A stretch of 64,000 nt of DNA from Verrucomicrobiia bacterium. Its GTDB lineage: Bacteria > Verrucomicrobiota > Verrucomicrobiia > Limisphaerales > UBA1319. Location of the stretch: assembly GCA_963664225.1 (NCBI GenBank), contig OY760937.1:3840001-3904000 (forward strand), written 5' to 3'. Below, piece by piece: positions 2,248 through 62,710 of this stretch. A program made the position numbers and the translations under genes. The notes under the pieces are model-generated. The model had not been told where the DNA came from. It saw only the letters and a program-made list of their open reading frames with translations, and made no database searches. Each line of letters begins with the position of its first letter. Position 1 is the stretch's first letter.

Positions 2248-3056
2248 CAGAAGGAAAATCCCGCAACCAAACGGGTGTTGACCCGCTCATGGCCTTCCAA
2301 TTCGAACTGATGATTGTTATCCGCATTATCGGTAAAATTCACCCCGAATACTTGGGGCATGACGCTCAAAACAGCCCACCACCGGCCCCGGTGATAGCTG
2401 GCAACCGGCCCGAGATAGAACGCGGTGTTTTCCCATTCTGAGTAATTGGGGATTTCGTTGTGATCGCGCATTTCGACACCAACACCCCAATATTTTCCGA
2501 TTTGGCGCGCAAGGCCAAAACTCAGTTCCACCTCTCCTTCAGAGTTGCGGTAGCGATCGGTCCATTCGGCGGCATGCGTCAGATTCAGAGCCCATTTCCA
2601 GCGTCCAAAACGCTGGCCCAGAATAATTTTGGCTTCGACCTCGGCTTCGTCATCGGAAAGACGCGGTTCAAGGTAGAGGGTCAAACCGACCTTGTGCTCG
2701 GCAGGATTCCAGATCTGGTAGCGGTTCTCGAATGAAATGCCATCCCACTGGAAGGTTGAATGTTTGATGCCGGTGCCGGGATCCCGAAAGGACTGTTGGA
2801 ATGAGTTTAGATAGAGTTCCACCGTGTAATTGTCGGTCACACCATATTCGATGGAGTCACGAAACTCCCACCGGTTGAAATTGTCCTGTCCGACCGTGGC
2901 ATTGCGCTGGCTGCGCCAGGTGACCCACTGTTCGAATTCCCATCCACCCTTGGGCATGGTTTCCGGCTCATAAGAATAACCAAACATCCGCTCGTTTGCC
3001 GAGGCGGAGAGACTCAGGCCAAAAAGAACGCAGGCCAAACATAAATTATTCGTCAT
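2247..3056 (-). CDS. Putative outer-membrane beta-barrel protein (DUF6662-like)
   Basis: Signal peptide, FGYSYEPETMPKG..EFEQW N-terminal motif, amphipathic strands, C-terminal Phe. Confidence 0.7.
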   Translation of the reverse strand: MTNNLCLACVLFGLSLSASANERMFGYSYEPETMPKGGWEFEQWVTWRSQRNATVGQDNFNRWEFRDSIEYGVTDNYTVELYLNSFQQSFRDPGTGIKHSTFQWDGISFENRYQIWNPAEHKVGLTLYLEPRLSDDEAEVEAKIILGQRFGRWKWALNLTHAAEWTDRYRNSEGEVELSFGLARQIGKYWGVGVEMRDHNEIPNYSEWENTAFYLGPVASYHRGRWWAVLSVMPQVFGVNFTDNADNNHQFELEGHERVNTRLVAGFSF

Positions 3057-3068
3057 GGCAAAACTCTA

Positions 3069-3087
3069 AATGAGACACGGTCTCAAT
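3069..3087. promoter_or_regulatory. 19-bp palindromic operator, Fur-box-like
   Basis: AATGAGAC-ACG-GTCTCAAT, 12 nt upstream of the barrel gene start. Confidence 0.5.
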
Positions 3088-3183
3088 AGCAACCCGAAAA
3101 ACCTGCGCACCGTGGTCATGAATTAATGCGATCTATGAGCTTGTTGGCGTTGTCCCCATGGGATAATCTCGGCAACAATCCTT

Positions 3184-5901
3184 ATGATCCCTGCCAAAAT
3201 AATCTGCCTCGTGGTCTTTGTGCTGTTGGATTTTAATGCGTATTCCCGCGAGTTTGAAGGAGCGCGCACCAACTCAACACTGTTGAACGGTTCCTGGGAG
3301 TTTGCCGTGGGAACGGGAGACGAGACCGCAGGAACTGCTGCAGGACAGCAGAATCTGAAATGGAAACCGGTAATCTTGCCGGGTCCGTTCATGCCCTATT
3401 CGAATGAATCCGCGAACAGCATTAAATGTGTTTGGGCGCGCAGAAAAATTCAGATTTCCAGAACTCAGTCCGAGGGCATTGCGGTGTTGCGCTGGAACCG
3501 CATCGCCTGCGGTGCGGCGGCTTACATAAACGGTAAGAAGGTCGGCGAGAATGAACCCACCGGACCCTATCAAGTCATTCTTCCGCGGGGCGTGCTTCAG
3601 CGGGGCGAAAACGAGATTGTGCTCAAAATACGCGGTGCGGCGGGGGTGCGGCGGAGTCAGAGCGGAAATGCCTTGATCCCAGCAGGATTCGGCGTGGGCA
3701 TGCCGGAAGTGACCGATGACGTGTGGATCGATTTTGCAGATGGGGCGTACGTGAAGTGGGCGTTGGCTATCCCTGATGTGGCCGGCAGCCGTGTGAGGAT
3801 CCGTGTTACACCGGTCGGTCTTGAACGAATGGATGATTTGCGAATCGTCGCGCAGGTGAAACAATGGCCGGAAGGAAAGGTCGTCGGCGAAGGTCAGACG
3901 TTGGCCAGACTTGTGCCGGACCAGGATCCACTTGGAGGCGAACACTTCTTGGTCGAAATTCCGATGCCGGACTTCAAGCCTTGGACCCATGAGAATTGCC
4001 CTCTCTACACCGCCCGTGTGAAACTTGTCAGCAATGGGCGAATTCTGGACGAACTAACCTTCCGATTTGGGATGCGCGAGATCGGTGTGAAGGCCCGCAA
4101 CTACCAATTGAACGGCAGGAACCTTTGGCTGCGCGGTTCGAATCTGGTGTTTGAATGGAACTGGGCCGACACCATCACTGGCCATGAAACGGATTACCTG
4201 GTCACTGAGGCCCGGGAGTTGAGCATGAACTCCTTCCGCACGCACACCCAACCGCCACCGAGACTGTGGTGCGACATTTGCGACGAGAACGGAACCATGA
4301 TTCTGGCTGAGTTTCCGGTCCTCTACAATTACGCGGATTACAAATTCACAGCCGAGGAATACAAAATCTGGCATCAGAATGTGCTCACCGACGTGACTGG
4401 CTGGATGACCAGACTCTGGAACCATCCTTCGGTCATCATGTGGGTTTTGTCCAACGAATCGCGAGGAGACAATGTGTGGGAGGAGGGGCCCTATCAGGAT
4501 TTCGTCAACGCATTCGATCCGACGCGTCCGACACTGCGGACCGGCTCCACAGGAACCAAAGAAAACTACGATTTGCATCCGTGCGGTAATGTCACAGAAA
4601 CGGATGAAGGTCATCTTCAACCGCAGATTCGAGGATGGATCGAGGCAGCCGGTGAGCGCACCACCACGGTCACCGAATACATGAACGACTTTGGCCATCC
4701 ACGCACGCAATGGACTGGAGTGGATGACCGGGCTGCGAACGATCTGGCGGTCGCCCAGATAGGGGCCGAGCATACGGAAGCGATGCGTCGCGCCCGGCTT
4801 GATGGCATCTGGCCGTACATGTATGCGGGTTGGACGCGGACGCGGCTCGCAGCCCGTGTCAAAGAAACCGGCAAGGGAAGCGCCATCTGGAAGGCCAACT
4901 ACGCCGCACCACAATCGGCTGCATGGCACAGTTCGCTTTCTCCCGTGCTTGCCAGTCTTGATTTGTTCGATCCCAATTACACGACCGGGCAAGCTGTCAC
5001 CAACGATCTTCATTTAATCAATGACTCCTGGCATGACGCCAGAATCCATGTGGATTTGTTGCTCACCCGGGAATGCCCTGAGTTTATTCCAGAAGCGAAG
5101 TGTTTTGATGAGCCAGTCCAAAAGTGGAGCTTCGATTTTGCGCTCAAGGCTGACTCTGTCGAGAAGGTGCCGGTTACCTGGAAACTGCCGATGGAGCAGG
5201 GAAACTATTGGCTCACGGCGCGCATGACCGGTGTGTCCGGACGTCCCGTGTTAAGCCAGCGTTTCGTGCGAGCCATTTCCGCACTCACCTTGCCCGCTGC
5301 CGTGAAAAAGCAGGAGTATGCAGTGGTGGGAGGGGATCATGTCGCGCAAGATTTTTTCCAGTCGCACGGTCTCCCGACCACTTCGAGGCTGGACGCCTTG
5401 ATTCCCAATCAACATGTGGTGGTTATTTGGGATGCCTCGCGCCTCTCATCTGAAGAAAAGCGCCAAACCAAAATTCTCGATGATTTTCTGCGTGTTGGAG
5501 GGAAGGTGGTTGTCTTATCCACTCCTTCCTGGGACTGGTCGGAATTGTGCGATGTGAAGATCCTCCGCGATCCACGCTTCTCTCGCGTGTTTCCCTGTCA
5601 GGATCGCAAAGACGCGCTCCTGGCGGGCGTTGATCCAACCTGGCTGATCCGTTGGAATGGCATGCCCGGATCCGTTGCGGTGGGATCGCTGGAAGGTCCC
5701 GGCATGGCCAAAGCGGAGAAGATCCTTTGGGCGCGCGAACCGAAAACAACCGTGATGGCATTGGTTCCCGCCGCCTCGGGGGCCGGTCAAATCTTGTTTG
5801 CGCAGCTTGATCTAAAAGGGCGCGTGGATCGTTCCAAACCCGGCTACGATCCAGTGGCCGAGCGAGTCCTGCTCAGCCTGCTGGTTCGGCAGGATCGGTG
5901 A
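3184..5901 (+). CDS. Glycoside hydrolase family 2 protein, secreted
   Basis: Signal peptide; LNGSWEF, RFGMREI, NSFRTH and WNHPSVIMWVLSNE (acid/base Glu) motifs. Confidence 0.85.
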   Translation: MIPAKIICLVVFVLLDFNAYSREFEGARTNSTLLNGSWEFAVGTGDETAGTAAGQQNLKWKPVILPGPFMPYSNESANSIKCVWARRKIQISRTQSEGIAVLRWNRIACGAAAYINGKKVGENEPTGPYQVILPRGVLQRGENEIVLKIRGAAGVRRSQSGNALIPAGFGVGMPEVTDDVWIDFADGAYVKWALAIPDVAGSRVRIRVTPVGLERMDDLRIVAQVKQWPEGKVVGEGQTLARLVPDQDPLGGEHFLVEIPMPDFKPWTHENCPLYTARVKLVSNGRILDELTFRFGMREIGVKARNYQLNGRNLWLRGSNLVFEWNWADTITGHETDYLVTEARELSMNSFRTHTQPPPRLWCDICDENGTMILAEFPVLYNYADYKFTAEEYKIWHQNVLTDVTGWMTRLWNHPSVIMWVLSNESRGDNVWEEGPYQDFVNAFDPTRPTLRTGSTGTKENYDLHPCGNVTETDEGHLQPQIRGWIEAAGERTTTVTEYMNDFGHPRTQWTGVDDRAANDLAVAQIGAEHTEAMRRARLDGIWPYMYAGWTRTRLAARVKETGKGSAIWKANYAAPQSAAWHSSLSPVLASLDLFDPNYTTGQAVTNDLHLINDSWHDARIHVDLLLTRECPEFIPEAKCFDEPVQKWSFDFALKADSVEKVPVTWKLPMEQGNYWLTARMTGVSGRPVLSQRFVRAISALTLPAAVKKQEYAVVGGDHVAQDFFQSHGLPTTSRLDALIPNQHVVVIWDASRLSSEEKRQTKILDDFLRVGGKVVVLSTPSWDWSELCDVKILRDPRFSRVFPCQDRKDALLAGVDPTWLIRWNGMPGSVAVGSLEGPGMAKAEKILWAREPKTTVMALVPAASGAGQILFAQLDLKGRVDRSKPGYDPVAERVLLSLLVRQDR

Positions 5902-55634: not shown

Positions 55635-57071
55635 ATGCCCGAGGAATATCGCCTGATTTTAAAGCACGTTGACGAGCCGGGCTACACGACGGACATCGAA
55701 TGCTATTTGCGGCATGGCGGCTACGCCACGCTGACGCGGGCGCTCACCGTCGAACCGGTGGCCACGGGCGCGGGAGAGCCGCTGTCGGCTCCGGCGCAGA
55801 TTCGTCAGGAAGTGAAGATTTCCGGTCTGCGGGGTCGTGGCGGCGCGGGATTTCCCTGCGGCACCAAGTGGTCGTTCATCGATCCCAAGACCACCAAACC
55901 CGTTTATCTGATCTGCAACGCGGATGAATCGGAGCCGGGCACATTCAAGGATCGCCAGATCATTTACAAGGATCCCCACCAGCTCATCGAGGGGATGATC
56001 CTGTCCTGCTACGCGAACAACGTTCACCTGGCCTATATCTACATTCGCGGCGAATTTGTGGAGGGGGCACGCATTCTCAATCGCGCGTTGAGCGAGGCGC
56101 GGTCGAAGAACTATCTCGGCAAAAACATTCTCGGCAAAGGCTACGATCTCGAGATTCACGTTCATCGGGGCGCGGGCGCGTATATTTGCGGCGAGGAAAC
56201 CGGCCTCATCGAGTCTCTGGAAGGCAAGCGTCCGTACCCACGGATCAAACCGCCTTATTTTCCGGCGGTGATGGGCCTCTACCTGTGCCCCACCATCGTC
56301 AACAACGTGGAAACGCTTTGCGCGGTCCGACATATCCTCGAAATGGGTGGTTCGGAGTATGCCAAACTGGGAACACGCACGGACCCGGGCACGCGCATCA
56401 TCAGCGTCAGCGGCCATGTCAAAAATCCCGGATACTTCGAGATTCAGATCGGGCAGTTCACGCTGGGACAGATCATCAACGATCTGGCGGGCGGATTGCG
56501 CGATGGGCATACCCTCAAGGCGGTCATTCCCGGTGGTTCCTCGGCCAAGATTCTGAAGGCCGGTGAAAAGTACAAGCTCAAAATCAAGAAGGCCGATGGC
56601 AAGGAAGACGAGCGCGAAGTCGGTCTGATGGATTTGCCCTACGATGCGGATTCCCTTCAGGCGGCTGGGTCGATGGGCGGTTCCGGCGCGATCATCGTGA
56701 TGGACGATTCCACCGACATGGTCGCCGCCCTGGCCAACATCAGCGCCTTTTACGCGCATGAAAGCTGCGGCCAATGCACGCCGTGCCGCGAGGGATCGCT
56801 GTGGATGAGCAAGGCACTGAACCGGTTGAGCAGTGGCGATGGGGGACGCAAACAGGATGCCGATTACCTGCTGCACATCGCCAATAACATTCCCGGCGGC
56901 CGCACCATTTGCGCCTTTGGCGAGGCGTGTTCCTGGCCGGTCCAAAGTTTCCTGGCCAAGTTCAAAGGCGAATTCGAAGCCAGAGGGGCTGCGGCTGAAG
57001 CCAGAGGGGCTGCGGCCGAAGTCAGCCGGGCTGCCGACGCCAAAACGGCGGAACCGACGCCTCACGCTTAA
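55635..57071 (+). CDS. nuoF: NADH-quinone oxidoreductase subunit F
   Basis: GLRGRGGAGF, NADESEPGTFKDR, YICGEET, ESCGQCTPCREG. Confidence 0.98.
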   Translation: MPEEYRLILKHVDEPGYTTDIECYLRHGGYATLTRALTVEPVATGAGEPLSAPAQIRQEVKISGLRGRGGAGFPCGTKWSFIDPKTTKPVYLICNADESEPGTFKDRQIIYKDPHQLIEGMILSCYANNVHLAYIYIRGEFVEGARILNRALSEARSKNYLGKNILGKGYDLEIHVHRGAGAYICGEETGLIESLEGKRPYPRIKPPYFPAVMGLYLCPTIVNNVETLCAVRHILEMGGSEYAKLGTRTDPGTRIISVSGHVKNPGYFEIQIGQFTLGQIINDLAGGLRDGHTLKAVIPGGSSAKILKAGEKYKLKIKKADGKEDEREVGLMDLPYDADSLQAAGSMGGSGAIIVMDDSTDMVAALANISAFYAHESCGQCTPCREGSLWMSKALNRLSSGDGGRKQDADYLLHIANNIPGGRTICAFGEACSWPVQSFLAKFKGEFEARGAAAEARGAAAEVSRAADAKTAEPTPHA

Positions 57072-57088
57072 ACTGGAATAACAATCAC

Positions 57089-58771
57089 ATGTCCACCGCT
57101 CCAGCATCGAATCCAGCCCCGGCCGGCATCACCGTCAAAGTGAATGGCAAGCCGGTCGAGATGCCCCGCACCACGCCCCATCCGGTGACCGGTCAGCCCA
57201 CGCCCACCACGATGATCCAGGCCTGCGAGGTCGTGGGGGCGATGGTGCCGCATTATTGCTACCATCCCAAACTGCCAGTGGCGGGCAATTGCCGCATGTG
57301 CCTCGTGGAATACGGCACACCGGCGCTGGGCCCGGACCGCAAACCGGTCCTGAATCCCGATGGCACGCCCATGATCAACAAGGCGCGCAACCCGGCCATC
57401 GCCTGCGCCACGCCCATTTCACCGGGAATGGAGATTTACACGGACACCCCGAACGTCAAGGCGATGCGCGAGGGGGTGCTGGAGTTTCTGCTGATCAACC
57501 ATCCGCTGGATTGCCCGATTTGCGATCAGGCCGGGGAATGCAAGTTGCAGGAATACTCGGTGGATTACGGACAGGGCGCGAGCCAGTTCGCGGAGGAAAA
57601 GGTTCACAAGCCCAAGCAGTTTGACCTAGGGCCGCGGATCATGCTCGATGACGAGCGCTGCATCCTGTGCTCCCGGTGCATCCGGTTCACACGCGATATT
57701 GTAGGGGACGACGCGCTGGGATTCATCAATCGCGGCAGTTACAACACGCTCACGCGGTATCCCAACCGGACGTTCGATAATAATTACACGCTCAACACGG
57801 TGGACATCTGTCCCGTGGGGGCGCTGACCTCGAAGGATTTTCGTTTTCAGATGCGCGTCTGGTTCCTCAAGGAAACGCGCAGCATCTGCACGAGTTGCGG
57901 CACGGGTTGCAGTATCGTGATCGGATCGCGCGAGAATAAAATTCTGCGTTATGTGCCGCGCGACAACGACGCGGTCAATTCCTCCTGGATGTGCGACAGC
58001 GGACGCCTCAATTACAAATGGGTCGGCCGGGAGGATCGCCTGGTCAAGGTTCAGAAAAAATCGCCCAACGCGCTGGCCCAGCCGGTTTCGTGGCGCTCCG
58101 CCGTGGAGGAGATCGGCCAAATCATGCGTGTGGCGCTGCCGGGTACCGTGGCCATCATTGCGTCGGCGAGGCAATCCAACGAGGAGCTTTTCCTTTTGTC
58201 CAGGCTGGCTCAAAAATGGTCCGCGGTCACCGATTCGCTTCCCCGCCGGGGTGAGGCGGACAAATTATTGGTGAACGCGGATAAGAATCCCAACACGAAC
58301 GGCGCGCGAATCATGGGGCTCGCGCCGGAGGTGCCGGGTTCCAATATCGAGGTGATCAAAACGGGCATCACGGCCGGAACCATCAAGGTCATGATCGTCG
58401 CGGGCGACAACATTGCATCGGTTATTGAACCGGCGATTTTAGGAAAGCTGGAGGCGCTCATCGTGACGGACATCCTGCCCAATGCGACGACCGCGCTGGC
58501 CCATTACCTCCTGCCCGGTTGCGCGCACGCGGAGAAGCGGGGGACGTTCATCAATGTGAAAGGCCGGCTGCAGAAGTTTCTCAAGGCGGTGGAAGCGCCG
58601 GGAGAGGCGAGGCCGGAGATTGAGTTTTTACGGGAAATCATCGAGCGCGCCACGGGCGAGACCCTGCCTGCGGACATCGAGGGGCTATTCAACATGATGG
58701 CCCGCGAGGTGCCCGCGTTGAAGGGGATCACCTGGGCCTCTGTGGGCGAAACGGGAGTGAACGTGAGTTGA
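57089..58771 (+). CDS. nuoG: NADH-quinone oxidoreductase subunit G (short form)
   Basis: YCYHP..AGNCRMC, HPLDCPICDQAGECKLQ, RCILCSRC, CTSCGTGC. Confidence 0.95.
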   Translation: MSTAPASNPAPAGITVKVNGKPVEMPRTTPHPVTGQPTPTTMIQACEVVGAMVPHYCYHPKLPVAGNCRMCLVEYGTPALGPDRKPVLNPDGTPMINKARNPAIACATPISPGMEIYTDTPNVKAMREGVLEFLLINHPLDCPICDQAGECKLQEYSVDYGQGASQFAEEKVHKPKQFDLGPRIMLDDERCILCSRCIRFTRDIVGDDALGFINRGSYNTLTRYPNRTFDNNYTLNTVDICPVGALTSKDFRFQMRVWFLKETRSICTSCGTGCSIVIGSRENKILRYVPRDNDAVNSSWMCDSGRLNYKWVGREDRLVKVQKKSPNALAQPVSWRSAVEEIGQIMRVALPGTVAIIASARQSNEELFLLSRLAQKWSAVTDSLPRRGEADKLLVNADKNPNTNGARIMGLAPEVPGSNIEVIKTGITAGTIKVMIVAGDNIASVIEPAILGKLEALIVTDILPNATTALAHYLLPGCAHAEKRGTFINVKGRLQKFLKAVEAPGEARPEIEFLREIIERATGETLPADIEGLFNMMAREVPALKGITWASVGETGVNVS

Positions 58772-58775
58772 GTGT

Positions 58776-60896
58776 ATGACACGAAACTTACTTAATAATG
58801 CAGGGTTTTGGAATACGAAAAGGACACCCTCACCCCGTACCCTCTCCCTCTGGCGAGGGAGAGGGAGAAGAGTTGCGGGGACGGTGCGCTGGAGAAATGC
58901 AGATGCGCAGGGCGAACGAATGGTTGCTTTTGGGAAGCGAACGGGACAATTTGTGACGCCCCTACAGGGCTTTCTTTATTGGAGTGAACGTTACCTGGGC
59001 CTCCGCTCGCGGACTCGCTCCAGCCCAGGCTGTAATATTACGGCCCTTCGGGCCTGGGACTCGCATCCATCGTTGCTGGACAATACCATGTTCAGCCCGG
59101 ACCATAACATTAAGACCGTTCGGGCCAATACGGGTTTCGGGCGAGAGAGTGGGATCGCGGGGACGGCGTGCAGAGGACTGCCCGCCCTACCACGAACTCT
59201 CCCGGGTCATGCCCATTCAAGTTTGGAGCGAGAGAGTGGGATCGCGGGGACGGCGCGCGGGGGGGAATGTGGACGCGGGGCGCGGACGGATGATTTCATT
59301 TGCGAAGCGATAGGGAATACGAAAAGGTCACCCTCACCCCGTACCCTCTCCCTCTGGCGAGGGAGAGGGAGAAGAGTCGCGGGGACGGTGCATTCAACTG
59401 AGCGTGTCCGTATTGCCATTCCGCAAGCCGATGGCTGGAATATTAAAGGAAACCCCTCTCTCCGGCTCTCTCCCCGCTCGTGCCTCGCAGGGCGAGAGGG
59501 AAGAATTGCGGGGACGTTGCGCTTGGGAAATGCGGATGCGCAGGGCGGACGAATTGTTGCTTTTGGGAAGCGAACGGGACAATTTGTGACGCCCCTGCAG
59601 GGCTTTTTTTATTGGAGCGAACGTTACCTGGGCCTCCGCTCGCGGACTCGCTCCAGCCCAGGCTGTAATATTACGGCTCTTCGGGCCTGCGACTCGCATC
59701 CATCGTTGCTGGACAATACCATGTTCAGCCCGGACCATAACATTAAGACCGTTCGGGCCAATACGGGTTTGGGGCGAGAGAGTGGGATCGCGGGGACGGC
59801 GTGCAGAGGACTGCCCGCCCTACCACGAACTCTCCCGGGTCATGCCCATTCAAGTTTGGAGCGAGAGAGTGGGATCGCGGGGACGGCGTGCGGGGGGGAA
59901 TGTGGACGCGGGGCGCGGACGGATGATTTCATTTGGGAAGCGATAGGGAATACGAAAAGGACTCCCTCACCCCGTACCCTCTCCCTCTGGCGAGGGAGAG
60001 GGAGAAGAGTTGCGGGGACGGTGCATTCAACTGAGCGTGTCCGTATTGCCATTCCGCAAACCGATGGCTGGAATATTAAAGGAAACCCCTCTCTCCAGCT
60101 CGCTCCCCGCTCGTGCCTCGCAGGGCGAGAGGGAAGAATTGCGGGGGCGGCGCGTTTGGGAAATGCGGATGCGCAGGGCGGACGAATGGTTGCTTTTGGG
60201 AAGCGAACGGGACAATTTGTGACGCCCCTACAGGGCTTTTTTTATTGGAGCGAACGTTACCTGGGCCTCCGCTCGCGGACTCGCTCCAGCCCAGGCTGTA
60301 ATATTACGGCCCTTCGGGCCTGGGACTCGCATCCATCGTTGCTGGACAATACCATGTTCAGCCCGGACCATAACATTAAGACCGTTCGGGCCAATACGGG
60401 TTTCGGGCGAGAGAGTGGGATCGCGGGGGCGGCGTGCAGAGGACTGCCCGCCCTACCACGAACTCTCCCTGGTCATGCTCATTCAAGTTTGGAGCGAGAG
60501 AGTGGGATCGCGGGGGCGGCGTGCAGAGGACTGCCCGCCCTACCACGAACTCTTCCGGGTCATGCCCATTCAGGTTTGGGGCGAGAGAGTGGGATCGCGG
60601 GGACGGCGTGCAGAGGACTGCCCGCCCTACCACGAACTCTCCCTGGTCATGCCCATTCAAGTTTGGAGCAAGAGAGTGGGATTGCGGGGACGGCGTGCAG
60701 AGGACTGCCCGCCCTACCACGAACTCTCCCTGGTCATGCCCATTCAAGTTTGGAGCGAGAGAGAGAAGAGAAGGACGCCGCGATCATTCATTTGCTTGAG
60801 GCTATTTGTTCCTTATACTTACCATATTGTTGTAAAGGAATGAATCGATTGCCGATGATTTTTGTCATGCGTCTCAACCCGATAATTGGATTGTGA
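58776..60896 (+). other. 706-codon stop-free frame spanning the repeat array from nuoG to nuoH; not a recognisable protein
   Basis: ATG 4 nt after the nuoG stop; TGA overlaps the nuoH GTG (GTGA). Confidence 0.5.
58811..60765 (+). repeat. Composite array of REP-like hairpin modules: 633-bp higher-order period plus four terminal 87-bp tandem copies
   Basis: Shared anchor GCGGGG(A/G)CG at 58875, 59157, 59244, 59379, 59508, 59790, 59877, 60012, 60141, 60423, 60510, 60597, 60684; modules of 282, 87, 135 and 129 bp. Confidence 0.95.
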
Positions 60897-61912
60897 ACGA
60901 ATTTATCATTTTTAGCGCGGTCAAGGTCGTGGTCGTCATCTCGATGGTGCTCTTTATGGTGTCGTACACCGTGGTGGCGGAGCGGCGGGTGTCGGCCTGG
61001 ATTCAAGACCGGATGGGGCCCAACCGGGTGGGACCGTGGGGTCTGCTCCAACCCGCAGCCGACGCCGTCAAGGCCTTCCTCAAGGAAGACTATGTGCCGG
61101 GTCATGTGCGCAAAGTGTTTTTCTGGCTGGCGCCGGCCATTGTGATGTTGCCCGGGCTGATCACCGTGGCGGTCATTCCGTTTGGATCGAACCTGCGCGG
61201 TGAGCCGATGGTGATTGCGGATTTAAACATCGGCATTCTCTACACGTTCGGCATCGTCTCGCTGGGGGTATATGGGATTGTCCTCGCCGGATACGCCTCG
61301 AACTCGAAATACCCGTTTTTGGGCGGCATCCGGTCCACGGCCCAGCTCATCTCGTATGAAATTGCCATGGGATTGTCGGTCATTCCGCTTTTCATGATTG
61401 TGGGCAGTCTCAATCTGAGCCAGGTGGTGGGTTATCAGGCGGGCGGTTTCACCAATTGGCTGGTCTGCAAGGCCCCGTTGTCGTTCATCATCTTTCTGGT
61501 GGCGGCATTTGCGGAAACCAACCGTCTGCCCTTCGATTTTCCAGAGGCGGAGAACGAATTGGTGGCGGGCTACAACACCGAGTTTGGCTCGATGAAATTC
61601 GCGATGTTTTTCATGGGCGAATACGCGAACATGATCGCCGTCTCAGCCATGATGGTGACGCTGTTCTTTGGGGGATGGACGCTCCCGTTGTTCGGGCTGG
61701 ACCAGCCTGCAACCTCGCTGTTTGTGGGTTTGCTGCATATCGCGATCTTCCTCACCAAGCTGGGCGCGTTCCTGGTTCTGATCATCTGGGTGCGGTGGAT
61801 GTGGCCGCGGTTCCGGTTCGATCAACTCATGGACCTGGGCTGGCGGCGGTTTATACCACTGGCGCTGGCGAACCTTCTTATAACGGCGGTGGTTCTGTGG
61901 GCCATTCATTAA
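60893..61912 (+). CDS. nuoH: NADH-quinone oxidoreductase subunit H
   Basis: ERRVSAWIQDRMGPNRVG, AETNRLPFD.PEAE.ELVAG, PRFRFDQLM. Confidence 0.98.
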   Translation: MNEFIIFSAVKVVVVISMVLFMVSYTVVAERRVSAWIQDRMGPNRVGPWGLLQPAADAVKAFLKEDYVPGHVRKVFFWLAPAIVMLPGLITVAVIPFGSNLRGEPMVIADLNIGILYTFGIVSLGVYGIVLAGYASNSKYPFLGGIRSTAQLISYEIAMGLSVIPLFMIVGSLNLSQVVGYQAGGFTNWLVCKAPLSFIIFLVAAFAETNRLPFDFPEAENELVAGYNTEFGSMKFAMFFMGEYANMIAVSAMMVTLFFGGWTLPLFGLDQPATSLFVGLLHIAIFLTKLGAFLVLIIWVRWMWPRFRFDQLMDLGWRRFIPLALANLLITAVVLWAIH

Positions 61913-61955
61913 CAAAAGCGTGATGACTAACCATCCAATGATGCGAACGAGGACC

Positions 61956-62103
61956 AGGAGAGGGAGAAGAATCGCGGGGACGGCGCGCGGTGGGCGGACG
62001 CATGATTTCATTTTGGAAGCGAGCGGGAATATGAAAAGGACTCCCTCACCCCGTACCCTCTCCCTCTGGCGAGGGAGAGGGAGAAGGGTCGCGCGGACGG
62101 CGT
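61956..62103 (+). repeat. Second copy of a REP-like module between nuoH and nuoI
   Basis: Anchors at 61974 and 62091 (117 bp, the 135-bp module minus 18 nt); CCCTCACCCCGTACCCTCTCCCTCTGGCGAGGGAGAGGG hairpin. Confidence 0.9.
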
Positions 62104-62209
62104 TCGTGGGGGAATGCCCGCGCTGCCACGCATTGCCGGGCGGTCGGCATTCTCTCATTCGATCGAGTACGTCTGCTATTCCTGCATTCTTTCGCAGCTC
62201 ATTCATGCC

Positions 62210-62710
<501 letters not shown>

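Follow-up and report, generated by a model that had tools for sequence, protein, structure and literature searches.

Two inserts built of REP-type repeats, one at the nuoG/nuoH junction and the other at the nuoH/nuoI junction, lie inside a single complex I (nuo) operon of a Verrucomicrobiia bacterium (Limisphaerales; UBA1319). Each insert is stop-free in exactly one of its three sense frames, and the open frame forms a bridge ORF from the end of one gene to the start of the next. We lean slightly towards selection for translatability as the explanation, through ribosome delivery, protection from Rho, or both; a rough estimate of the probability that these frames arose by chance is ~1e-5 before look-elsewhere. 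The sequence analysed, referred to as the window, is a 64,000-nt stretch of contig OY760937.1 (assembly GCA_963664225.1), and its relevant features are collected in Table 1.

Anatomy of the two inserts

Insert 1 is 2,121 nt long and consists of a 633-bp unit present about 2.7 times, followed by a repeated 87-bp unit. A sequence-only reading of the window had divided it into four modules of 282, 87, 135 and 129 bp, all multiples of 3, and the spacings between the 38-nt cores bore out this division. They run 282, 87, 135, 129, 282, 87, 135, 129, 282, 87, 87, 87, then 1290 and 117, and every one across both inserts is a multiple of 3. The partial first 633-bp unit (58856..59273) matched 59489-59906 at 95.9% identity over 418 nt, and the third unit matched the second at 96.8% over 618 nt, both gap-free. 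Hairpin arms were detected in the repeat units, and the fold of the 633-nt unit was no stabler than that of shuffled sequences (z = -1.47).

The same reading had claimed an open frame of 706 codons from 4 nt after the nuoG stop to the nuoH GTGA, and this frame was recovered with 0 stops. The nuoG stop is the TGA at 58769-58771; the ATG of bridge ORF 1 lies 4 nt past it, and the terminating TGA (60894-60896) lies within the nuoH GTGA (60893-60896). Stops number 0, 9 and 20 in the + frames of the insert, and 14, 18 and 23 in the - frames. Bridge ORF 2 was also found as first described: its GTG lies 7 nt past the nuoH stop (TAA, 61910-61912), and its TGA falls within the nuoI ATGA (62210-62213). 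The + frames of insert 2 (297 nt) hold 0, 2 and 4 stops, and one minus frame is open too. Alignment agreed with the description of its module as the 135-bp module minus 18 nt.

The nuo gene order is kept in 19 of 19 relatives. NuoH aligns with the NuoH of a same-genus relative from residue 1, with a GTGA start in both, and the NuoI of relatives also aligns from residue 1, with an ATGA or GTGA start in 16 of 19.

Table 1. Genes, bridge ORFs and repeat features at the nuoG-nuoH-nuoI junctions (positions in the window)
Feature	Position	Strand	Description
nuoG	57089..58771	+	ORF, 560 aa; Pfam Fer4_Nqo3, NADH-G_4Fe-4S_3, Molybdopterin; upstream of insert 1
Unique left flank, insert 1	58772..58812	+	Contains ATG; single copy in genome
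Bridge ORF 1	58776..60896	+	706 codons (706 aa); 0 stops in frame; no Pfam match
First E1 hairpin element	58810..58887	+	CCCTCTCCCTC-TGGCG-AGGGAGAGGG type; fused to first 282-bp module
Partial first 633-bp unit	58856..59273	+	282 + 87 bp modules and beginning of 135-bp module
Second 633-bp unit	59274..59906	+	Complete; order E1 hairpin, E2, E3, two E4 cores
Third 633-bp unit	59907..60524	+	Merges into 87-bp tandem
87-bp E4 module tandem	60400..60763	+	4.2 copies; Tandem Repeats Finder period 87, 94% matches, 0% indels
Unique right flank, insert 1	60760..60892	+	A+T-rich; adjoins nuoH start; single copy in genome
nuoH	60893..61912	+	339 aa, GTG start; Pfam NADHdh 2.3e-117
Unique flanks, insert 2	61913-61960 and 62105-62209	+	Single copy in genome
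Bridge ORF 2	61920..62213	+	97 codons (97 aa); no Pfam match
135-bp module copy with 18-nt deletion	61945..62112	+	Core spacing 117; by alignment
nuoI	62210..62710	+	166 aa, ATG start; Pfam 4Fe-4S dicluster domains

Frame preservation and the chance expectation

The repeat families of the inserts have 84 (E1), 57 (E2), 15 (E3) and 50 (E4) copies in the genome by nhmmer, and outside the nuo locus 177 of 185 copies are intergenic. Short palindromic units, many copies and a nearly wholly intergenic distribution place them with REP/REPIN-type repeats, for which the available part of one source gives GTAG or CGTC as the terminal tag (PMC3733652). Two E3 copies form an inverted pair (E3- 3598960-3599067, E3+ 3599556-3599661) around a Y1_Tnp gene (3599096-3599548), an IS element adjoins repeat clusters, and no RAYT was found in the genome beside E1, E2 or E4 copies. 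The three E3 copies of the insert scored 29.0-29.7 bits against Rfam RF01687 (Acido-Lenti-1), below the gathering threshold of 37, and the RAYT-flanking E3 copies gave no Acido-Lenti-1 match at E <= 0.1. The common 134-bp E1 arrays elsewhere, considered for a comparison of 135 versus 134 bp, form a separate subfamily and were dropped.

Same-family core spacings are multiples of 3 in 10 of 10 cases in the nuo locus and in 9 of 42 at other sites of the genome. Across 106 other repeat-bearing gaps, the Kaplan-Meier probability of an open run was 0.0052 for 211 codons, 0.0017 for 281 codons and 0.053 for 98 codons. The rough joint estimate of ~1e-5 is the product 0.0017 x 1/9 x 0.053 for the specified frames, assuming independence. 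Only 1 of 55 co-oriented repeat-bearing gaps of at least 250 nt is sense-open, which is nuoG-nuoH itself, and 0 of the 54 others are bridged. The other annotated repeat clusters lie between unrelated genes or beside IS elements. None of them is operonic, so a genome-wide enrichment comparison has no operonic control arrays among the annotated gaps and is powerless here.

Copies within the nuo array are separated by ~37 substitution events and 0 indels. Control repeats showed 0.05-0.18 indels per substitution, giving a probability of 0.15 to 0.0013 for the lack of indels in the nuo copies. The array-based control ratio came from 11 indels and 62 substitutions in eight of nine non-nuo pairs with identity of at least 94%; a pair at 157657 (152 vs 135 nt), whose alignment was mostly gaps, was left out. 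The BLAST-based ratios were lower (0.05-0.11), and the full range is therefore given. The sequence-only reading had also counted the absence of stop-making substitutions as evidence. From the ~37 substitutions one would expect 1.25 new stops in this frame, and the probability of none is 0.29, so this absence is not significant and carries no weight. Variable columns by codon position (12/5/13) showed no departure from an even distribution in a hand calculation.

Chance followed by amplification is the first alternative to be weighed, and we regard it as possible but unlikely. A composite insert would have been open and a multiple of 3 in length by luck and then duplicated in tandem; the ORF would be young and irrelevant, and nuoH and nuoI would use their own weakly structured starts or an internal promoter. 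The 706 codons have a non-redundant content of ~281 codons, and openness of the array needs a multiple of 3 at two lengths only (633 and 87). As a rule, repeat arrays in this genome contain few stops, with E1 and E4 stop-free in five of six frames in most copies and with open runs of 400-800 nt in non-operonic arrays, the longest being 792 nt. The frame survives substitutions alone with the probability of 0.29 given above, the lowest control indel ratio leaves 0.15 for the lack of indels, and a rare coincidence is possible, given how many windows were scanned to find this locus. Against this stand the joint estimate, the five distinct spacings (117 included) and the 18-nt deletion, which are all multiples of 3 beyond what openness requires, the start codons no more than 7 nt past the upstream stop in both inserts, and the comparable bridges in relatives described below. 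When other copies are read in the frame used at the nuo locus, those without stops number only 31 of 51 for E2 and 5 of 12 for E3.

It is very improbable that the 706 codons specify a genuine protein under selection, such as a disordered Arg/Gly-rich accessory factor of complex I. The ORF is long, unbroken and in operon position with coupling-type junctions, and dN/dS between array copies is slightly below 1 in the bridge frame (0.61 and 0.85). However, frame 1 gives a similar value (0.76), so dN/dS is uninformative. No Pfam family was matched, no homologue except itself was found among proteins of 388-1236 aa, and all 19 relatives that were examined lack the ORF, as does the same-genus relative. 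It is made of intergenic repeat families that are present in all gap types, and its codon log-odds of -0.084 per codon, where genes average 0.201, lies below the 1st percentile of genes. In homologues, domain, gene-like codons and purifying selection, bridge ORF 1 is unlike an ordinary gene; the bridge ORFs are non-genic in nature.

A mis-assembled inner array or a wrong copy number is scarcely credible: although no short-read record crosses the inner array and the pieces break at repeat borders, at each insert the two outer junctions are spanned by short-read contigs from four runs in two studies, with 0 differences, copy-specific variants appear as separate contigs, the genome is one 5.78-Mb contig, and the frame is kept at any copy number of the 633-bp or 87-bp units. 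The copy number of the inner array is given solely by the single-contig genome, because no record spans it.

Relatives and known systems

Neither insert is present in the same-genus relative, where nuoG is separated by 12 nt from the GTGA of nuoH, and nuoH by 23 nt from the ATGA of nuoI. The median gaps in 179 related loci are 31 nt (G-H) and 13.5 nt (H-I). By these comparisons the inserts are lineage-specific and most probably were acquired once the two lineages of the genus had separated. In metagenome and genome scans with NuoH, the nearest matches reached 73% and 80% identity. The start/stop overlaps reported in the sequence-only reading are present at both junctions, but the GTGA and ATGA are ancestral starts that pre-date the inserts, because the insert-free nuoH and nuoI of the same genus begin likewise. 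Any +1-frame ORF is therefore forced to end there, which favours the chance explanation.

Comparable bridges were seen in relatives. Three H-I inserts (L068, 138 nt; L070, 277 nt; L009, 123 nt) each hold one spanning ORF, which starts 13-25 nt past the upstream stop and has an ATGA or GTGA end. Two consecutive ORFs cover the length of a 701-nt REP-RAYT-REP insert at H-I (L140), with an ATGA end, and ORFs at the G-H junction of L147 and L134 overlap nuoH by 4 nt at their end. The insert-bearing loci of the relatives may derive from one common ancestral insertion. With the present genome excluded, the excess of the +1 frame in relatives was not significant, at 4/9 versus 2/18 for the other frames (p = 0.07), and 3/9 for strictly stop-free +1 frames (p = 0.19). 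Five H-I inserts of REP/RAYT type are unbridged (L049, L059, L060, L061 and L067). The claim of selection on translatability is partly supported, by the spacings in multiples of 3, the rarity of such open runs, the lack of indels and the non-protein character of the ORFs, but these unbridged inserts count against it. The large H-I gaps of L079, L145 and L147 were rejected as inserts, since nuoG or nuoH is split or frameshifted there.

The idea of translatable repeats, of which the sequence-only reading knew no earlier description, is already in print; it is not new and has long been proposed for the MIRUs of mycobacteria. The available parts of two sources describe MIRUs as tandem repeats in operon gaps (e.g. 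the senX3-regX3 intergenic region) that are co-oriented with the genes, and whose ORFs overlap the adjacent genes, by -4 at the start of the downstream one; the arrangement is interpreted as permitting insertion with minimal effect on expression and is credited to Supply 1997 (PMC12548453; PMC3184786). The nuo arrays are likewise tandem repeats in an operon gap, co-oriented with the genes, and their bridge ORFs overlap the downstream start by 4 nt and begin 4 or 7 nt past the upstream stop. They differ in belonging to another phylum, in their REP-like hairpins and in one family that flanks a RAYT. MIRUs have a short ORF per 40-100-bp unit, whereas the nuo array is one 706-codon ORF over 2.1 kb, with units of 87-282 bp within a 633-bp super-unit, a distinction in unit size and ORF layout. 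The 77-bp MIRU length is not a multiple of 3.

Classical operonic REPs are untranslated RNA that acts as mRNA stabilisers or Rho-dependent attenuation sites, whereas the nuo array sits within an ORF joining two cistrons. The likeness to REP, BIME and REPIN elements with their RAYTs is that the nuo-array families are short G+C-rich palindromes in tens of copies, arrayed and present in all gap types. Of the four families, E3 alone was found as an inverted pair around a Y1 transposase gene, and the IS beside repeat clusters fits what is reviewed for REPs in the accessible text of PMC3184786. That text lists Rickettsia palindromic elements and other repeats with in-frame fusions to genes, Ogata 2000 being among the references (PMC3184786). 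Palindromic repeats are tolerated there, and probably also in the nuo operon, by keeping a frame open, but the Rickettsia elements sit within or at either end of true protein genes and join the protein, whereas the nuo ORF is made of repeats only and lies between genes. According to the portions available, translation of the ORF itself drives the downstream gene at comEB-comEC by coupling through a stop/start overlap (10.1101/2020.12.30.424838), and short coupling ORFs need to be translated but their product is not needed (PMC12548453). Those are ordinary genes or short leaders, whereas the nuo bridges are mobile repeat arrays. A literature search found no paper linking intergenic repeat elements in operons, translational coupling and Rho dependence.

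Expression context and a possible path for ribosomes

Rho is present in the genome. SD-like 4-mers precede 603 of 3122 genes, compared with 483 of 3122 control windows, and 272 of 2870 co-oriented neighbours share a 4-nt overlap. Around the starts of nuoH and nuoI the sequence is A+T-rich and folds weakly (-6.5 and -6.3 kcal/mol; nuoH window -30..+30), with less structure than at three quarters of gene starts. Independent initiation at both genes is therefore possible, as the chance explanation supposes. A scan of the inserts for promoters, by the sigma-70 consensus only, and for terminators found nothing, and the inserts resemble nuoG in rut-like C/G content, which does not discriminate.

If the arrays were selected for translatability, they would have entered two normally tight junctions after the same-genus split and expanded by local tandem duplication, and only versions that ribosomes can read through would have persisted. 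Ribosomes would end nuoG, restart at the ATG 4 nt on, read 706 repeat codons and terminate within the nuoH GTGA. After nuoH they would restart at the GTG 7 nt on, read 97 codons and terminate within the nuoI ATGA. The bridge peptide itself would be functionless, and what counts would be ribosome cover over 2.1 kb of hairpin-rich RNA. Such cover would prevent Rho-dependent polarity, melt the hairpins and pass ribosomes on to the following start, in a genome with hardly any use of Shine-Dalgarno sites. Translation, coupling and protection from Rho at the bridge ORFs are what we infer from the sequence.

A broader reading is offered tentatively. In Verrucomicrobiota, REP/RAYT-type mobile repeats might settle at stop/start junctions in operons with tight coupling, subject to one filter, namely that an insert conveys ribosomes between the stop of the gene before it and the start of the gene after it. 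Arrays could then reach kilobases, and a 706-residue junk polypeptide might be made in step with the subunits of complex I. This would be the MIRU situation carried to an extreme outside the mycobacteria, and de novo proteins could readily arise from it. If the bridges are translated, we know of no larger or cleaner natural example of selection on translating and not on the product. They would show that selfish repeats can inhabit an essential operon by mimicking a cistron, and would carry the MIRU principle beyond Actinomycetota into Verrucomicrobiota, and beyond mini-ORFs to an ORF of 2.1 kb. For annotation, 'hypothetical proteins' of the bridge type would be neither genes nor mere noise, and for de novo gene birth, a long repeat-derived polypeptide would have operon-level expression. 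The locus would also be a natural setting in which to examine Rho polarity and reinitiation independent of SD sites, both of which, to our knowledge, have hardly been studied in Verrucomicrobiota.

The same genome holds a second complex I operon. A 513-nt open gap in it was rejected as a bridge, having no repeat matches and resembling a missed part of nuoC. The presence of this second operon could relax selection on the nuo operon that carries the inserts.

Architecture of the two nuo inserts

ORF calling placed the nuo operon on the plus strand of the window, with a 2,121-nt insert between nuoG and nuoH and a 297-nt insert between nuoH and nuoI. Both carry palindromic hairpin repeats, which in insert 1 belong to four families, E1 to E4. 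A 38-nt core occurs 15 times across the two inserts, at successive spacings of (282, 87, 135, 129) twice, then 282, 87, 87, 87, 1290 and 117, each a multiple of three. Insert 1 comprises about 2.7 copies of a 633-bp unit followed by an 87-bp tandem, and alignment showed that the module of insert 2 is the 135-bp module minus 18 nt. The frame of bridge ORF 1 has no stop codon in insert 1, compared with 9 to 23 in the remaining five frames; the sense frames of insert 2 have 0, 2 and 4. The ORF map, core spacings and stop counts confirmed the initial observation of inserts with 3n modules, open frames and start/stop junctions. The outer junctions of both inserts were matched with 0 differences by short-read contigs (four runs, two studies), none of which spanned the inner array of insert 1.

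Genes and bridge ORFs around the inserts (window coordinates)
Feature	Position	Strand	Remarks
nuoG	57089-58771	+	Pfam
bridge ORF 1	58776-60896	+	706 codons; ATG 4 nt past nuoG stop; TGA within nuoH GTGA
nuoH	60893-61912	+	Pfam NADHdh 2.3e-117; GTG start within GTGA
bridge ORF 2	61920-62213	+	97 codons; GTG 7 nt past nuoH stop; TGA within nuoI ATGA
nuoI	62210-62710	+	Pfam; start within ATGA

We rejected ORF 1 as a real protein. It contained no Pfam family, and a search among proteins of 388-1236 aa returned no homologue except itself. At -0.084 per codon, its codon log-odds fell below the gene value of 0.201 +/- 0.060, and dN/dS between repeat copies (0.61 and 0.85) resembled that in the wrong frame (0.76).

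Origin of the open frames

The sequence-only reading held that selection acts on the translatability of the arrays and not on the peptide. Our evidence leans modestly towards such selection. Preservation of the frame is likely real; translation of the inserts, coupling and protection from Rho are inferred. All 10 same-family spacings inside the locus were 0 modulo 3, whereas the 42 pairs outside it were distributed 9/15/18 over remainders 0, 1 and 2. Once its redundancy is removed, ORF 1 holds about 281 codons, and in a Kaplan-Meier estimate over the other 106 repeat-bearing gaps, the probability of an open run after a stop of at least 211, 281 and 98 codons was 0.0052, 0.0017 and 0.053, respectively. 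Outside nuo, just 31/51 E2 copies and 5/12 E3 copies are stop-free in the frame used at nuo. The array copies differ at about 37 positions yet show 0 indels. As controls of similar identity, 8 pairs of neighbouring units in other arrays had 11 indels per 62 substitutions, and control BLAST pairs had 0.05-0.11 gap openings per mismatch; the probability of no indel among the nuo copies therefore lies between 0.15 and 0.0013. For the specified frames, the joint chance estimate was roughly 1e-5, a figure that assumes independence and ignores the selection of this case from a very large scan.

The leading alternative, that chance plus amplification yielded the open frame, seems less likely; several features of the genome speak for it. 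Repeat arrays here are generally stop-poor, with open stretches of 400-800 nt in non-operonic arrays, and most copies of E1 and E4 lack stops in five of the six frames. Moreover, the frame stays open with just 633 and 87 being multiples of three. The argument that copy-to-copy substitutions never make a stop lost its force, since the probability that no new stops arise among copies is 0.29. A 482-codon ORF (window 55659-57107, minus strand) lies antisense over nearly all of nuoF, an example of how readily this genome produces long frames that are spurious.

Rho is encoded in the genome, and no sigma-70-like promoters or terminator-like sites were found in the inserts. Neighbouring co-oriented genes share 4-nt overlaps in 272/2870 cases, so coupling-type junctions are common. 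SD-like motifs are barely commoner upstream of genes (603/3122) than in control windows (483/3122). The nuoH and nuoI starts lie within A+T-rich, weakly folded, unique flanks and could initiate independently, which speaks against coupling being strictly required.

The principle of a translatable intercistronic repeat is not new; it is already in print for MIRUs, which section 9 of a review describes as ORF-bearing parts of polycistronic transcripts overlapping neighbouring genes (PMC3184786); its section 15 covers repeats fused in frame to genes. For comEB, an ORF required only for its translation is described (10.1101/2020.12.30.424838). The nuo case differs from MIRUs in phylum, element type and size, and MIRUs form chains of mini-ORFs while insert 1 carries one continuous ORF over 3n modules.

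Age of the insertions and the junctions of relatives

A same-genus genome has no inserts: nuoG is followed after 12 nt by GTGA-nuoH, and nuoH after 23 nt by ATGA-nuoI. Among 179 related loci, the median gap was 31 nt at nuoG-nuoH (n=124) and 13.5 nt at nuoH-nuoI (n=160). Both insertions are lineage-specific. The nuoI gene begins with ATGA or GTGA in 16/19 relatives. Because the same-genus genome and relatives already start thus, the two motifs are ancestral, and an ORF that approaches from upstream in the +1 frame is bound to terminate in them, a chance of one in three per junction. The stop/start overlaps are present at both junctions as first described, but they are automatic for an ORF in that frame.

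Among 55 repeat-bearing co-oriented gaps of at least 250 nt in the source genome, only nuoG-nuoH was sense-open; the other annotated clusters have unrelated genes on either side or adjoin IS elements, so this test lacks power.

In other Verrucomicrobiota the nuoH-nuoI junction is an insertion hot spot. Six relatives' loci (L013, L019, L041, L134, L141, L149) hold a two-gene pair of about 500 nt whose second gene ends in the nuoI ATGA; for L149 the pair is deduced solely from the length of the gap and its pattern of stops. The products of the pair presumably resemble DUF4160/DUF2442 proteins. A small ORF (about 72 aa, MQKLVTIYLDN...) is conserved between L043 (3152-3373) and L147 (~4545-4742) and probably represents a genuine accessory gene. 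In L049, L059, L067 and L140 the gap holds a RAYT-like gene together with REP hairpins, and L061 has a remnant. The RAYT ORF of L140 continues across the 3' REP and ends in the nuoI ATGA; a 48-codon ORF covering the 5' REP precedes it.

We compared nine non-genic or REP/RAYT inserts at this junction. Single ORFs bridge those of L009, L068 and L070, from 13-25 nt past the stop to ATGA/GTGA, and two consecutive ORFs, the last ending in ATGA, cover that of L140; L049, L059, L060, L061 and L067 are unbridged. The coupling frame was open or chained in 4/9, against 2/18 for other frames (p = 0.07), and with the two inserts of the source genome added in 6/11 against 2/22 (p = 0.008), although loci may share ancestry in both counts. 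At nuoG-nuoH, L147 and L134 have ORFs whose last 4 nt overlap nuoH, and L070 has one that ends at the nuoH start; L014 has no such ORF. The A+T-richer 1.7-kb insert of L123 (1780-3461) holds unrelated ORFs, among them a chain with 4-nt overlaps (2204-2569, 2566-3240, 3237-3395).

The repeat families and their genome

Iterated nhmmer searches of the 5.78-Mb single-contig genome found 84 copies of E1, 57 of E2, 15 of E3 and 50 of E4. These occupy gaps of every orientation (convergent, divergent, co-oriented) and are scarcely ever inside genes. Of 16 E4 copies in co-oriented gaps outside nuo, 14 are antisense to the genes; the copies in the nuo insert are all sense. An inverted E3 pair encloses a RAYT-like Y1 transposase gene (genome 3598960-3599661, in locus L203, 3597692-3601030), one of 8-9 Y1_Tnp genes. 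Therefore at least E3 behaves as a classical REP, and is probably the REP of this transposase. The E3 copies of insert 1 (59000-59055, 59627-59688, 60266-60321) scored 29-29.7 bits against Rfam Acido-Lenti-1, below its gathering score of 37, and the copies flanking the transposase gene did not match that family. Other families of the order also contain parts of the 633-bp unit, chiefly E2, at 85-95% identity; for E2 (window 59446-59511) this holds against genomes G002-G014, a conservation unusual for a selfish repeat.

A 1,280-bp IS (HTH_Tnp_1 + rve) is present in about 11 near-identical copies, one at L037 1480-2760, and several directly adjoin repeat clusters, as if targeting repeats. The plus strand is G-rich overall (G 0.290, C 0.270). 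Cumulative GC skew climbs in two stretches, 0-1.3 Mb and 3.7-5.8 Mb, with a plateau separating them and no return to zero, which is unusual for a closed chromosome. The genome also has a second complex I cluster (L035, 5573239-5577900) in the order nuoA, B, [C]D, I, H, whose NuoH is 43% identical to that of the window.
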